Shown one piece after another: positions 3,535-11,071 of a stretch of 12,028 nt of DNA (the first letter of the stretch is position 1; every line of letters starts with the position of its first letter). Source of the stretch: a virus; UHGV virus genome UHGV-0149822. One strand, 5' to 3'. A model generated the notes under the pieces. That model saw only the letters and a list, made by a program, of their open reading frames with translations, made no database searches and was not told the origin of the DNA. The position numbers and the translations under genes were made by a program.

Positions 3535-3936
3535 ATGTTTGATTGCATTGAGTGGAACGGGTGCCGAGACCGTTTCGGATACGGTATGCGAAAGGTCAAC
3601 GGGAAAGTCCGTAGACTACATCTAATAGCCTTCGAGGAGGCGAACGGTCCGATACCTGAAGGAATGGTCGTGCGACATAAGTGTGACAACCCATCGTGTT
3701 ACAACCCAGCACACTTAGAGCTGGGGACACGGGCCGACAACAATCGTGATAGAGACGTAAGAGGTCGAACCGCTAAGGGAGTGAGGCATGGGAGTTCTAG
3801 GCTTACACCTGAAATAATACAAGAGGCCAAGGTGCTCTACGCAGGAGGTGGATGGACTCACCGCTCCCTAGGTGAGAAGTATGGAGTGGGACACCGCACG
3901 ATAGCTAGAGCAATTGGAGGAGAAACATGGACTTAA
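3535..3936 (+). CDS. HNH homing-endonuclease-like protein with C-terminal HTH-like region (copy 1)
   Basis: HNH motif RHKCDNPSCYNPAHLELGTRADN visible. SD GGAGG (3523-3527) 7 nt before ATG 3535; the track frame opens earlier at GTG 3499. Stop TAA 3934-3936 overlaps the DNA polymerase start by 10 nt. Confidence 0.85.
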   Translation: MFDCIEWNGCRDRFGYGMRKVNGKVRRLHLIAFEEANGPIPEGMVVRHKCDNPSCYNPAHLELGTRADNNRDRDVRGRTAKGVRHGSSRLTPEIIQEAKVLYAGGGWTHRSLGEKYGVGHRTIARAIGGETWT

Positions 3937-6095
3937 GTAACGTATACGGGTCTGACATCGAGACCAACGGTCTCCTTGATACAGTCTCCCAGTTTCACTG
4001 TGGGGTCCTGATTAACGCCGAGTCGAATGAGACCCTTAAGTATGGGGTAGCTCCGATGGTCGGTATCGTCGGTGGCTTCAAAGAGTATGTTCAGAAGGTG
4101 GAAGAGATTGCCGCATCACCTGATGGTATGCTGGTATTCCACAACGGTATCAACTATGACGTCCCTGCTATTGACAAGCTGAAACGTCTGTACTTTGGGA
4201 AACGATTTAACTTCCCGAAACACAAGATGATTGATACCTTGGTGCTCGCCCGCTTGATGTATCCAAACATTAAGTTCTCAGACATGGGCGCGGTGAAATC
4301 TGGTCGTCTGCCACCTAAGATGATGGGACGCCAGTCTCTTGAGGCTTGGGGTTATCGTCTCGGTGAGATGAAAGGTGAATACAAACACGATTACGTTGCC
4401 AAGTGCAAGGCTGAAGGTATCGAATATAAGGCTGGGGACGAATGGTTGTTCCCGTCTCAGGAGATGCTGGACTATAACGTTCAAGACGTTGTGGTCACGC
4501 TGGCGTTGCTCAAGAAGTTCCTGACTGACAAGTATTACTTCCAGTCTGAACAGTTCGCTTTCGACCAGATTTATGCGTTGCGTCTGGAACATGATGCTGC
4601 GTGGACCTGTGCGAAGATGGAACGTAACGGCTATCCGATGAACACCGAGATGGTCGAAGGCTTATATCGTGAACTCACCGTCAAACGTGCAGAGTTGCTG
4701 GACAAGCTGCGTTCGACTTTCGGTAGCTGGTACGCACCAAAGGGAGGCAAGGAGTTCTTCAAGCACCCACGGACAGGCAAGGACCTTCCGAAGTATCCGC
4801 GAGTCGTGTATCCTAAGGTCGGGTCAGTATTCAAGAAGCCGAAGAACAAAGCTCAACGCTTAGGTCTGGAGCCTTGCGAGTTCGACTCACGAGACACAAT
4901 GGAAGGAGCACCATTCACGCCAATAACTTACGTTGAGTTTAATCCGGGAAGCGGAGACCACTTAGCGAAAGTCCTGATGGAGCGTGGCTGGGAGCCTGTG
5001 GACTTCACTGACACCGGGAAACCTGTAGTCGATGACGAGACGTTAGAGCACGTTAAGTTGCCAGACGCAGAGGCTCAGGCTTGCGTAGAGCTGGTCCGTG
5101 AGTATCTGGTAGTCCAGAAGCGCATCGGTCAGGCGGCTGAAGGTAAGAACGCATGGTTGAAACTTGTAGGTCCAGACGGACGTATGCACGGTTCAATCAA
5201 CCCATGCGGGGCAGTAACCGGACGTGCGACTCATAGTTCACCAAACATGGCTCAGGTCCCGGCTAATGGTGCTCCATATGGTGAGATTTGCCGTGGTGCT
5301 TTCGGTGCAGCTTGGAACAAGACGGATGGTACGCCAGACCCTTGGATTCAAGTGGGTGTGGATGCTTCAGGTCTTGAGCTTCGTTGTCTTGGGAACAGAG
5401 CGGCTCCGTTTGATGGTGGTGCATATGCGAAGAATGTGGTCGAAGGTGACATCCACTGGGCCAACGCAGTAAACGCTGGGTTAGCACCTAACGTCCCACG
5501 CGATAAGTCGAGCCACGACCATGATGCTTTCCGTAACAACGCTAAGACGTTCATCTATGCGTTCCTGTACGGTGCAGGGGCCGCTAAGATTGGACTGATA
5601 GTAGGCGGTGGGAAGAAGGAAGGTTCAGCTCTCATGAAGAAATTCATTGAGGGTACACCAGCCATCAAAGACCTCAGGGAAGCTGTGAGCAATACGTTAA
5701 TCTCAGACTCTAAGTGGGTGGACGGTGAGAATATCGTTAAGTGGAAACGCCGTTGGTTGCGTGGACTTGATGGTCGCCGTATCCACATCCGGTCACCGCA
5801 CTCAGCACTGAACGCCTTACTTCAAGGCGATGGTGCGGTAGTCTGTAAGCACTGGATTGTCGAGACTGAACGTATGCTCGAAGAGGCCGGGTATGTTCAC
5901 GGCTGGGAAGGTGACTTTGCGTACATGGCTTGGGTACATGATGAATTGCAGATTGCGTGTCGTACTCAGGAGATTGCTGAAGAAGTCGTCAAGATTGCTC
6001 AGCTTGCTATGCGTAAGGTGGGTGAGTTCTATAACTTTAAATGTGTCCTTGATACCGAAGGTAAGATTGGACCAACGTGGAAGGAGTGTCACTAA
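3927..6095 (+). CDS. gp5: DNA polymerase, family A with 3'-5' exonuclease domain (T7 gene 5 homolog)
   Basis: 722 aa. Exo I motif (SDIETNGL), Pol motif A (GVDASGLELR), motif B (KTFIYAFLYGAG), motif C (AWVHDELQ), and a lysine-rich insertion (PKYPRVVYPKVGSVFKKPKNKAQR) corresponding to the T7 thioredoxin-binding loop. Colinear with T7 gp5 along the whole length. Confidence 0.97.
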   Translation: MDLSNVYGSDIETNGLLDTVSQFHCGVLINAESNETLKYGVAPMVGIVGGFKEYVQKVEEIAASPDGMLVFHNGINYDVPAIDKLKRLYFGKRFNFPKHKMIDTLVLARLMYPNIKFSDMGAVKSGRLPPKMMGRQSLEAWGYRLGEMKGEYKHDYVAKCKAEGIEYKAGDEWLFPSQEMLDYNVQDVVVTLALLKKFLTDKYYFQSEQFAFDQIYALRLEHDAAWTCAKMERNGYPMNTEMVEGLYRELTVKRAELLDKLRSTFGSWYAPKGGKEFFKHPRTGKDLPKYPRVVYPKVGSVFKKPKNKAQRLGLEPCEFDSRDTMEGAPFTPITYVEFNPGSGDHLAKVLMERGWEPVDFTDTGKPVVDDETLEHVKLPDAEAQACVELVREYLVVQKRIGQAAEGKNAWLKLVGPDGRMHGSINPCGAVTGRATHSSPNMAQVPANGAPYGEICRGAFGAAWNKTDGTPDPWIQVGVDASGLELRCLGNRAAPFDGGAYAKNVVEGDIHWANAVNAGLAPNVPRDKSSHDHDAFRNNAKTFIYAFLYGAGAAKIGLIVGGGKKEGSALMKKFIEGTPAIKDLREAVSNTLISDSKWVDGENIVKWKRRWLRGLDGRRIHIRSPHSALNALLQGDGAVVCKHWIVETERMLEEAGYVHGWEGDFAYMAWVHDELQIACRTQEIAEEVVKIAQLAMRKVGEFYNFKCVLDTEGKIGPTWKECH

Positions 6096-6379
6096 TGGCT
6101 ATTACTAAACGTATTCGTGTGAGTTTTGACCTGAAGATGGTTGTTAACTCAAAGGCAGAAGAGACCGTGTGTCGCCAACTGGCTGAGATGACTAAAGCCT
6201 ACGCTGGTGGTGAGAAGTTGGATGGGCTTCAGTTGGCTCTGGTCAAAGCAGCAATCGAGTCAGGCCCTGAGTCTGCCATTGAAATTGTCGCCAAGAAGCA
6301 CATCAAGGAAGAGCTGGTAGACGCCTTTGGTGATGGCCAGTTAGGTGTGTCCAACCTGCGATTCGAGGTCAAGCAATGA
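6095..6379 (+). CDS. Small protein at the gene 5.5 position (T7 gp5.5 is an H-NS-binding protein); start uncertain
   Basis: SD AAGGAG (6081-6086) 8 nt before ATG 6095, which overlaps the polymerase stop (TAATG). The track opens the frame at 6077. Assignment is mainly by synteny and size (94 aa). Confidence 0.6.
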   Translation: MAITKRIRVSFDLKMVVNSKAEETVCRQLAEMTKAYAGGEKLDGLQLALVKAAIESGPESAIEIVAKKHIKEELVDAFGDGQLGVSNLRFEVKQ

Positions 6380-6585
6380 GTGAATACTTACGGGTCCTAG
6401 CGGCCCTTAAGTCCTGCCCGAAGACCTTCCAGTCCAACTACGTGCGAAACAACGCTGCACTTGTGGCTGAGGCTTCGAGCCGTGGACATCTAAGCTGCCT
6501 GTCTATGGATGGGCGTAACAACGGTGCGTGGGAGATTACCGCTGCTGGCACCAAGTTCCTGAACCAACACGGAGGCTGTCTATGA
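6376..6585 (+). CDS. T7 gp5.7-like small protein (in T7, an inhibitor of sigma-S RNA polymerase)
   Basis: 69 aa, MSEYLRVLAALKSCPKTFQSNYVRNNAALVAEASSRGH...GAWEITAAGTKFL, closely resembling T7 gp5.7 as I recall it. ATG overlaps the upstream stop (ATGA). Confidence 0.7.
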   Translation: MSEYLRVLAALKSCPKTFQSNYVRNNAALVAEASSRGHLSCLSMDGRNNGAWEITAAGTKFLNQHGGCL

Positions 6586-6818
6586 GTGAACTGGATTTAC
6601 TGAAGAAGTTTGACGAGCTTATGTCACTCCTTAATGGTGAAGAGAACTCAATGGCTGAAGAGTTCCGCGAGGCTCTAGCAGCTAAGTTAGACCGTGCCGC
6701 TGATGATAGACTCTGGCGTGAGTGCTTGGCTGGTGGCGGGGTGGACAACTGGTCTGGGTTCTATGAGTCACTGTCTGAAGGTGGATACTACAAGGAGGAC
6801 GACGATGACTTCGAATAA
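6582..6818 (+). CDS. Acidic 78-aa protein at the gene 5.9 position (T7 gp5.9 is a RecBCD inhibitor); function here unproven
   Basis: SD GGAGG (6571-6575) before ATG 6582, which overlaps the gp5.7-like stop (ATGA). The track opens the frame further upstream at 6528. Strongly acidic, ends ...YYKEDDDDFE. Its stop overlaps the gene 6 start by 14 nt. Confidence 0.55.
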   Translation: MSELDLLKKFDELMSLLNGEENSMAEEFREALAAKLDRAADDRLWRECLAGGGVDNWSGFYESLSEGGYYKEDDDDFE

Positions 6819-8805: not shown

Positions 8806-9046
8806 ATCAATCAGTAAGGCATTCAAGAAAGTGGTGAAAAGTACACTAGGGACCGTTGGTCTTGGCTCTGATGACGCGCCTAAGGTTGTTGAGGCTCAGA
8901 CCCCAGCGGCACCAGTGGAAGTACCGAACGACAAAGTGGAGGATGTGGATACTGAAACAACCGCATCTGACGAGAAGAAAGTGAAGCGTTCCGGTAAGCG
9001 TGGCCTTCAGGTCTCTCGCACCTCTGGTGGCGGTATTTCTATTTGA
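8798..9046 (+). CDS. gp7.3-like protein (in T7 a tail-associated protein needed for adsorption)
   Basis: SD AAGGAG (8785-8790) 7 nt before GTG 8798. Lys-rich N-terminus MGKSISKAFKKVVKS and C-terminal ...SGKRGLQVSRTSGGGISI resemble T7 gp7.3 as I recall it. Confidence 0.65.
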   Translation: MGKSISKAFKKVVKSTLGTVGLGSDDAPKVVEAQTPAAPVEVPNDKVEDVDTETTASDEKKVKRSGKRGLQVSRTSGGGISI

Positions 9047-9459
9047 CCGGGTGCATCGAGTGGAAGTGGGCCAAATCCCCTGATGGGTATGGACAGAAGC
9101 GTATAGACGGAAAGTTAGTGTATATGCACCGACTCGCTTACGCCGATGCCTATGGTCCAATACCTGACGGAATGCTCGTCCGTCACAAATGTGATAACCC
9201 CTCATGTTTCAACGTTAACCACTTAGAGCTGGGGACGCAACGTGATAACATGCAGGACGCTTCAAGTCGAGGTAGGATTAACACTACCAAGAAGGCTAGA
9301 GGTGAATCTCAGGGATTATCAGTTTTAACAGAAGACCTTGTTCGAGAAATCCGCAAGTCAACTGTAGGCTGCACGACCTTAGCTCGTGAGCTTGGCGTTA
9401 GTAAGTCTACCGTACTGCGTGTTCGCCAAGGTAAAACATGGAGGCACGTAGATGGCTGA
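9043..9459 (+). CDS. HNH homing-endonuclease-like protein with C-terminal HTH-like region (copy 2; at the T7 gene 7.7 position)
   Basis: HNH motif RHKCDNPSCFNVNHLELGTQRDN. Paralogous to the 3535-3936 protein at protein and nucleotide level. Apparent TTG start at 9043 overlaps the gp7.3-like stop (TTGA); no good SD, suggesting coupled or low-level translation. Stop 9457-9459 overlaps the portal start. Confidence 0.8.
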   Translation: MTGCIEWKWAKSPDGYGQKRIDGKLVYMHRLAYADAYGPIPDGMLVRHKCDNPSCFNVNHLELGTQRDNMQDASSRGRINTTKKARGESQGLSVLTEDLVREIRKSTVGCTTLARELGVSKSTVLRVRQGKTWRHVDG

Positions 9460-9736
9460 ACGTGAAGGATTTGCTGCTGAAGGCGCGAAGGCAGTTTATG
9501 ATAGACTGAAGAACGGTAGACAACCATATGAGACACGCGCTCAGAACTGTGCTTCTGTCACTATCCCGTCACTGTTTCCTAAGGAGTCAGACAACTCGTC
9601 TACGGAATACGTGACGCCGTGGCAAGCTGTAGGTGCTCGCTGTTTGAACAACTTGGCTGCAAAGCTGATGTTGGCGTTATTCCAGAGGCTGCTGCTCGTG
9701 TTGACGAAGGGCTGGCTATGGTCGAGCGTGTGTTGA
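9452..9736 (+). CDS. gp8: Head-to-tail connector (portal) protein, N-terminal fragment (T7 gene 8 homolog); frame terminates prematurely
   Basis: SD GGAGG (9438-9442) before ATG 9452. MAEREGFAAEGAKAVYDRLKNGRQPYETRAQNCASVTIPSLFPKESDN.STEY.TPWQAVGAR.LNNLAAKLMLALF matches the T7 gp8 N-terminus. Similarity stops after F (9680-9682); the frame then reads QRLLLVLTKGWLWSSVC and stops at 9734-9736. Confidence 0.85.
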   Translation: MAEREGFAAEGAKAVYDRLKNGRQPYETRAQNCASVTIPSLFPKESDNSSTEYVTPWQAVGARCLNNLAAKLMLALFQRLLLVLTKGWLWSSVC

Positions 9737-10956
9737 TGGCCTACATGGAGACTAACAGTTTCCGTGTCCCATTGTTCGAAGCTCTGAAGCAGCTTATCGT
9801 CTCCGGTAACTGTCTGCTCTACATTCCAGAGCCTGAACAGGGTACTTATAGTCCTATGCGAATGTACCGCTTAGTGTCCTACGTTGTTCAACGTGATGCT
9901 TTCGGTAACATCTTGCAGATTGTGACTCTCGACAAGGTAGCGTTTAGTGCTCTACCGGAAGACGTGAAGTCTCAACTCAACGCAGACGACTATGAGCCTG
10001 ACACCGAGCTGGAAGTATATACGCACATCTACCGTCAGGACGACGAGTATCTGCGCTACGAGGAAGTGGAAGGAATTGAGGTAGCAGGGACCGAGGGTTC
10101 TTACCCACTGACTGCATGTCCGTACATCCCTGTACGAATGGTTCGACTGGATGGTGAAGACTATGGTCGTTCTTACTGCGAGGAGTATCTGGGAGACCTT
10201 AACTCGCTGGAGACGATTACAGAAGCTATCACCAAAATGGCTAAGGTAGCCTCCAAGGTGGTGGGCCTCGTTAACCCGAACGGTATCACGCAACCTCGTC
10301 GTCTGAACAAGGCGGCTACAGGTGAGTTCGTTGCTGGTCGCGTCGAGGACATCAACTTCCTGCAACTGACGAAAGGTCAGGACTTTACGATTGCCAAGTC
10401 GGTGGCTGATGCTATCGAGCAACGTTTAGGCTGGGCCTTCCTTCTTAATAGTGCTGTTCAGCGTAATGCCGAGCGAGTCACTGCTGAAGAGATTCGTTAT
10501 GTTGCTGGCGAACTGGAGGCGACCTTAGGTGGCGTGTACTCAGTACAGTCACAAGAGCTTCAGTTGCCTATCGTCCGTGTACTGATGAACCAGCTTCAGT
10601 CTGCTGGCATGATTCCTGACCTTCCGAAAGAAGCGGTAGAGCCTACGGTCTCCACTGGTCTGGAAGCTCTGGGCCGTGGTCAGGACTTGGAGAAGCTGAC
10701 TCAGGCGGTTAACATGATGACTGGTCTCCAGCCGCTAGCTCAGGACCCGGACATCAACTTGCCGACCCTTAAGCTGCGACTCCTGAACGCTCTAGGCATC
10801 GACACCGCTGGCCTACTCCTGACGCAAGACGAGAAGATTCAGCGCATGGCTGAGCAGTCGTCTCAACAGGCAGTTGTCCAAGGTGCGTCTGCTGCTGGCG
10901 CTAACATGGGTGCTGCTGTAGGTCAGGGAGCTGGTGAGGACATGGCTCAAGCCTAA
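9619..10956 (+). CDS. gp8: Head-to-tail connector (portal) protein, C-terminal portion in a different frame (T7 gene 8 homolog)
   Basis: From about 9682 (P-E-A-A-A-R-VDEGLAMVERVLMAY...) to the stop at 10954-10956 this frame is colinear with T7 gp8 residues about 105 onward (e.g. YRLVSYVVQRDAFGN, LRYEEVEG, CPYIP.RMVRLDGE.YGRSY.EEYLGDL, GLVNP.GITQPRRL, VTAEEIRYVA.ELE.TLGGVYS, LKLR..NA.GIDT). The first ATG of the ORF (9619) is upstream of where homology resumes. Confidence 0.9.
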   Translation: MASCRCSLFEQLGCKADVGVIPEAAARVDEGLAMVERVLMAYMETNSFRVPLFEALKQLIVSGNCLLYIPEPEQGTYSPMRMYRLVSYVVQRDAFGNILQIVTLDKVAFSALPEDVKSQLNADDYEPDTELEVYTHIYRQDDEYLRYEEVEGIEVAGTEGSYPLTACPYIPVRMVRLDGEDYGRSYCEEYLGDLNSLETITEAITKMAKVASKVVGLVNPNGITQPRRLNKAATGEFVAGRVEDINFLQLTKGQDFTIAKSVADAIEQRLGWAFLLNSAVQRNAERVTAEEIRYVAGELEATLGGVYSVQSQELQLPIVRVLMNQLQSAGMIPDLPKEAVEPTVSTGLEALGRGQDLEKLTQAVNMMTGLQPLAQDPDINLPTLKLRLLNALGIDTAGLLLTQDEKIQRMAEQSSQQAVVQGASAAGANMGAAVGQGAGEDMAQA

Positions 10957-10974
10957 ACTATCACTATAGGAACA
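10952..10974 (+). promoter_or_regulatory. Phage-RNAP promoter (CCTAAACTATCACTATAGGAACA), phi9-equivalent
   Basis: Contains the 18-nt motif CTAAACTATCACTATAGG. Overlaps the portal stop codon and lies 97 nt upstream of the scaffolding gene. Initiating region is GGA rather than GGGA. Predicted +1 G at 10969. Confidence 0.7.
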
Positions 10975-11071
10975 CCGAAAGTAAGAGCGACTAAGTCGAC
11001 CATATGGTAGCCGTTAGTCCCACACTGCAAGTAGGTGTTTACTTATTAACGACTTAAAGGAGAATGACTCA

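Follow-up and report, generated by a model that had tools for sequence, protein, structure and literature searches.

A 64-nt deletion in the portal gene of a Kayfunavirus contig assembled at approximately 3x k-mer coverage, probably a sporadic lesion

The window analyzed here is the whole of a 12,028-nucleotide stretch, UHGV virus genome UHGV-0149822, and an exact look-up of its 94-aa product identified it as the entire contig ena:ERZ1743991:NODE_2221_length_12028_cov_2.983767. The contig comes from a SPAdes-style metagenome assembly, contains no Ns, and has a k-mer coverage of 2.98 (approximately 3x), a depth at which one or two reads at a site may dictate the contig sequence. We identified the window as a Kayfunavirus (T7-like, Studiervirinae), with DNA approximately 94% identical to CR44b and many E. 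coli/Salmonella phages. When 19 coding sequences of CR44b were mapped to it, 18 aligned over their full length, in a single frame and without gaps, and gene 8, which encodes the portal, was the only one found broken. Elsewhere in the window, approximately 220 nt at positions 6591 to 6811 are absent from CR44b and correspond to a gp5.9-like ORF (6582-6818, PF25708) between genes 5.7 and 6, which is ordinary mosaicism. Genes 5.5 and 5.7 (6095-6585) overlap by 4 nt (6376-6379), where CR44b annotates a joined 5.5-5.7 fusion product.

All features of the portal locus lie on the plus strand. Upstream, the HNH homing-endonuclease gene 7.7 (9043-9459) overlaps the portal start codon with its 3' end. 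Portal codons 1 to 77 (9452-9682) are in frame with the ATG at 9452, read MAEREGF...KLMLALF, and are collinear with the relatives through F77, with a few substitutions. Beyond these 77 residues (...AAKLMLALF) the same ORF continues for 17 out-of-frame codons (QRLLLVLTKGWLWSSVC) and terminates at a TGA (9734-9736), so that the ORF at 9452-9736 encodes 94 aa; the tail at 9683-9736 is a by-product of the frame change and has no portal character. An open -1 frame extends over 9619-10956, and its translation from 9682 onward, P-EAAARVDEGLAMVER..., supplies the remaining portal sequence. This remainder (9685-10956, stop at 10954-10956) corresponds to residues 100 to 522 of the intact relatives and lies in the -1 frame with respect to the start codon. 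By tblastn, residues 100 to 522 of the CR44b portal were placed at 9685-10953 with 97.6% amino acid identity and 0 gaps, and residues 1 to 77 mapped to a different frame of the window.

The gene caller of the source collection starts the downstream product at an internal ATG at 9718, equivalent to M111 of the intact protein, yielding a 412-aa ORF (9718-10956). This ATG is preceded by GAAGGG 6 nt upstream (-12 to -7), and the upstream stop follows it at a distance of 16 nt. The 94-aa product and the 412-aa product each carry a PF12236 record, and where a portal gene is one ORF of approximately 520 to 545 codons, the window has it split between 9452-9736 and 9619 or 9718-10956. The first-pass annotation of this DNA, made from the letters and an ORF list, had described a portal divided between two frames at about 9682, continuing in the -1 frame and with a stop at 9734-9736, and the ORF map and raw sequence agree with it; the ATG at 9718 with an SD-like GAAGG upstream, which it had also pointed out, was likewise found in the sequence. 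Directly 3' of the portal stop, a phage-promoter-like sequence, ACTATCACTATAGGAACA, is located at 10958-10975, the same position as a predicted promoter of CR44b.

We aligned window positions 9600 to 9780 with 4 intact relatives (EFA-1, Pipis, EPr2, and CR44b) and identified a single contiguous gap of 64 nt between window positions 9682 and 9683, with flanks that align base for base. The window reads GCGTTATTC to the left and CAGAGGCTG to the right of this junction (spanning sequence ...GCGTTATTCCAGAGGCTG...), and the block that is gone here and kept by all relatives reads CCTCAGTCACCGTGGATGCGACTAACAGTCTCAGAATATGAGGCCAAGACCTTGAGTCAGGACT in EFA-1. Gene 8 consequently spans 1505 nt in the window, versus 1569 nt (522 codons, one uninterrupted ORF) annotated in the relatives. 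The loss amounts to 21 codons plus 1 nt, covering residues 78 to 99, PQSPWMRLTVSEYEAKTLSQDS (final codon incomplete), and the frame changes because 64 is not a multiple of 3. Five relatives encode the same peptide in this block, and their DNA varies there at synonymous sites. A deletion of about 64 nt, with about 21 residues absent relative to T7, had been proposed in the first-pass annotation; alignment with the relatives gives exactly 64 nt, and T7 gp8 (PDB 6qx5/6r21) aligns here without gaps with an intact relative. The other option it had offered, a naturally shorter loop together with a 1-nt indel, does not hold, since the 64 nt were lost as a single block and the loop is not shorter in any homologue. 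Comparison with the portals of the closest relatives, which it had put forward as a check, showed one continuous 1569-nt gene in them.

The missing segment is strongly conserved in length and, in part, in sequence. Across all 132 full-length homologues (63% to 97% identity), the stretch between F77 and E100 comprises exactly 22 residues, within which P78, W82, M83, L85, E89, and A92 are invariant. T7 gp8 retains this 22-residue segment, whereas the window does not. Homologue sizes ranged from 520 to 543 aa in 120 of 120 among the homologues listed, and the more distant cyanophage P-SCSP1u and 7y22 portals match over stretches of nearly equal length. An AlphaFold2 model of an intact relative, built from a 40-sequence alignment, was of poor quality, with a mean pLDDT of 54.7 and values below 50 across residues 26 to 89. 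Where it deals with the N-terminal part of gp8, the T7 portal paper places it in the wing domain (PMC6702177), and by that assignment the missing segment would be part of the wing region. With a segment of fixed length gone and the frame broken, no full-length portal can come from the window gene. Gene 8 is essential in T7, and the window allele is therefore best seen as null.

Codon differences from the relatives were counted with the 64 nt restored, and the synonymous to nonsynonymous ratios were 45:3 for EFA-1, 48:3 for EPr2, and 82:12 for CR44b, with the synonymous excess holding on both sides of the junction. Because nearly all substitutions are synonymous, the portal of this lineage was functional and under normal purifying selection until the deletion. 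The lesion is very recent, or else non-biological.

We searched for the lesion elsewhere. An 80-nt probe centered on the junction matched 171 phage records, and all 171 matched in two pieces spanning 143 to 144 nt, with the segment kept. A longer probe matched 253 records, in two pieces for 40 of the 40 among the matches listed. The junction sequence was not found in IMG/VR, JGI metagenome contigs, or GTDB genomes, and the exact 94-aa fragment is recorded on the window contig only. In a collection of 15 billion proteins, the 90% cluster of this fragment has two other members, each with a different lesion. One of these, from ENA ERZ15184986 NODE_69774 (coverage 0.5), is a 94-aa fragment caused by the loss of one T (GTTATT) 5 bases upstream, and the other is Enterobacter phage 02_vB_Eclo_IJM UZT50177, a GenBank portal garbled over several stretches. 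Further, Acinetobacter phage vB_Aba_01KA (PV615262) has one C fewer in the neighboring CCC run (TTCCC) and has its portal annotated in three pieces; its sibling PV615263, which matches the window at 100% of bases across 40 nt to either side of the junction, is intact.

The single-base losses in PV615262 (approximately position 1840) and NODE_69774 (approximately position 395) correspond to window positions 9677 to 9683, at most 6 nt from the left breakpoint, and each yields a 94-aa N-terminal portal fragment. A mutational hotspot at the left breakpoint was considered and dropped, since the searches behind these losses select for breaks at the junction position and the sequences found are error-prone and of low quality; the proximity of the losses is probably coincidence. 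Among the closest relatives, two Kayfunavirus records name unlikely hosts, namely EFA-1 (MT350292, "Enterococcus phage", UNVERIFIED_ORG) and vB_Aba_01KA. Apart from the lost C, the latter is identical over a 165-nt aligned stretch to E. coli phage vB_Eco_1RS, deposited by the same submitters, and the host labels of both records look unreliable.

We analyzed the breakpoints for signs of how the deletion arose. They share 1 nt (C) of microhomology, and neither a direct repeat at 64-nt spacing nor an inverted repeat around the deleted block was found. CTCAG occurs near both ends of the block and might have suggested direct-repeat slippage or a k-mer collapse, but the two copies are offset by 3 nt from the register of the junction. 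On visual inspection, CCTCAGTC and GACTCAGAGG seem to pair at the ends of the block, as a hairpin-mediated polymerase jump would need; the DNA fold of an intact relative across the deleted segment was, however, no better than that of shuffled sequence (z = 0.09), and with no inverted repeats this candidate was rejected. Ligation chimerism would not leave two fragments that are collinear and 64 nt apart, and a local polymerase jump or break repair, either in an infected cell or during library amplification, is more likely. Joining in a de Bruijn graph requires a shared k-mer. Because the breakpoints have none and only 1 nt in common, we infer that the junction existed in at least one read.

Cutting by an HNH endonuclease followed by imprecise repair likewise found no support as a cause, since the deleted block is identical in EFA-1, which carries the homing-endonuclease gene, and in EPr2, which does not; moreover, HNH 7.7 lies upstream of the portal start and not between the two halves of the gene. 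The window harbors two HNH homing-endonuclease paralogues (3535-3936 and 9043-9459) with approximately 42% protein identity, whose ends fall on or overlap the start codons of two essential genes, gene 5 for DNA polymerase (3927) and gene 8 for the portal (9452), respectively. The 7.7 copy is missing from relatives such as EPr2 and IME177 and thus behaves as a mobile insertion.

We consider it highly probable (approximately 0.85) that the split portal reflects an isolated null deletion in the small number of molecules sampled at approximately 3x, either a defective genome or an in vitro artifact, and is no feature of the lineage. A sporadic, non-homologous 64-bp deletion would have occurred within gene 8 of a Kayfunavirus, and a ribosome translating this allele would terminate after 94 residues (77 of portal and 17 out of frame), leaving it null, and the phage lineage itself would keep the intact 522-codon gene. 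The deletion would be confined to one or a few sequenced molecules covering the site and would have entered the assembly because, at approximately 3x k-mer coverage, no competing wild-type path outweighed it. If it arose in the cell, an error of replication or repair would have left a defective genome whose packaging requires portal supplied by a co-infecting wild type; if it arose in the tube, a polymerase jump during library preparation would be responsible, and we put the odds between the two as roughly even. Among the three options named in the first-pass annotation, a sequencing or assembly error and a defective genome stand as a class, given the coverage and the uniqueness of the lesion, and non-canonical expression does not. 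Several points weigh against a sporadic lesion: a 64-nt deletion is atypical of Illumina or de Bruijn error, the sequence offers no reason for a deletion at this particular spot, and the lesion departs from the usual pattern of spontaneous T7 deletions, which lie between short direct repeats.

Alternatively, a portal-null Kayfunavirus may have been present at appreciable frequency and kept by frequent co-infection, with the wild type giving portal in trans; the need for at least one junction-bearing read, as deduced from the 1-nt microhomology and the lack of a shared k-mer, is in keeping with such a helper-dependent genome, and the clean remainder of the contig speaks against generally poor data. 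We regard it as unlikely, since losing 64 bp brings no advantage in replication or packaging, no second public sequence shows the junction, and one or two reads suffice to fix a junction at approximately 3x. Less likely again is a join made by the assembler, in which no read held the junction and a coverage gap of approximately 64 nt was wrongly closed by graph simplification, a gap closer, or a scaffolder overlap. A k-mer coverage of 2.98 makes local gaps likely, but the breakpoints share 1 nt in register with no repeated word at the 64-nt spacing, so that a k-mer or short-end overlap has nothing to act on, and the contig is without Ns. The probability is lower still that a natural Kayfunavirus population carries the deletion as its dominant allele, persisting either as a portal-null "cheater" that co-infecting relatives complement or with a two-polypeptide portal produced via the ATG at 9718.

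Expression of the split gene as a working portal has also to be weighed. In one version, which we hold to be very improbable, the 94-aa N-terminal fragment and a 412-aa C-terminal fragment, reinitiated at the ATG at 9718 by translational coupling, would assemble into a functional portal. The position of this ATG, 6 nt behind GAAGGG and 16 nt ahead of the stop at 9734-9736, and its choice by the gene caller favor the idea, but the aligned intact relatives have the same ATG and SD-like motif within plain coding sequence (DEGLAM), so that neither evolved as a restart, both fragments lack residues 78 to 110, including the six invariant positions, and no relative is split here apart from evident 1-nt error frameshifts. 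The other version, programmed -1 ribosomal frameshifting near 9682 to give a 501-aa portal short of 21 residues, is the least credible of all. T7-like phages use -1 frameshifting elsewhere, in gene 10A/10B, and the RNA at 9676-9790 has a fold somewhat more stable than its shuffled versions (z = -2.0; 6 of 200 equally good), but this downstream structure is coding sequence common to the intact relatives and has no slippery site beside it. The junction had already been noted not to be a canonical slippery heptamer, and no X_XXY_YYZ heptamer was found in frame across the upstream ORF (9452-9736). G_UUA_UUC at the junction would, as read from its bases, allow poor -1 tRNA re-pairing. A long A/T homopolymer that could permit transcriptional slippage was likewise sought, and no homopolymer of at least 4 nt occurs in 9600-9740. 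A two-frame arrangement was sought in the relatives and was absent, each having one uninterrupted portal ORF. The frame changes exactly where conserved codons have been lost, a hallmark of a lesion rather than of recoding. The fixed-length, partly invariant N-terminal segment would be missing whether the product arose by frameshifting or by reinitiation. With no slippery site or homopolymer, a split that is not conserved, and a product short of the fixed 22-residue segment, the suggestion of non-canonical expression is not supported, and, as far as the nucleotide sequence can tell, the lesion is not programmed expression.

A sporadic null deletion in the sampled molecules, our preferred reading, gives the lesion itself little biological weight. 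It does bring a caution, namely that in low-coverage metagenome contigs an essential gene may bear an isolated lesion that looks clean and passes for recoding or a split gene. Were the allele instead dominant in the sample, it would exemplify, in a natural population of a lytic phage, a structural-gene mutant dependent on a helper, which would be of moderate interest for the study of phage populations.

Compared with known systems, the window gene is a T7-type portal (gp8, the head-to-tail connector, PF12236; T7 PDB 6r21/6qwp), as both of its fragments match PF12236, but it differs from this type in being interrupted, with 21 codons and 1 nt gone from a segment of fixed length and partly invariant sequence. 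It is closest to the Kayfunavirus portals, from which its protein, with the 64 nt restored, differs at 3 to 12 of 522 codons; PDB 9v30 is a 522-aa portal 98% to 99% identical to the Kayfunavirus relatives, and EFA-1 matches it over its full length. Like gene 10A/10B, expressed by -1 frameshifting, it is a structural gene of a T7-like genome that occupies two overlapping frames; unlike 10A/10B, it has no slippery site and no conservation in relatives, and the point of the shift is the deletion scar. The error-frameshifted Kayfunavirus portals (PV615262, UZT50177, and ERZ15184986 NODE_69774) resemble it in having the portal in pieces within low-quality or low-coverage sequence. In PV615262 and NODE_69774, however, a single base is lost at the junction site, versus a clean loss of 64 nt here with the rest of the contig intact, and PV615262 and UZT50177 differ further in having apparent frameshifts at several points. 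Spontaneous T7 deletions are usually bounded by short direct repeats, whereas the breakpoints in the window show microhomology of 1 nt and lack a suitably spaced repeat. In its outcome, the loss of an essential morphogenetic gene, the window resembles the null alleles of T7 gene 8 (amber or deletion), whose genomes propagate by complementation only.
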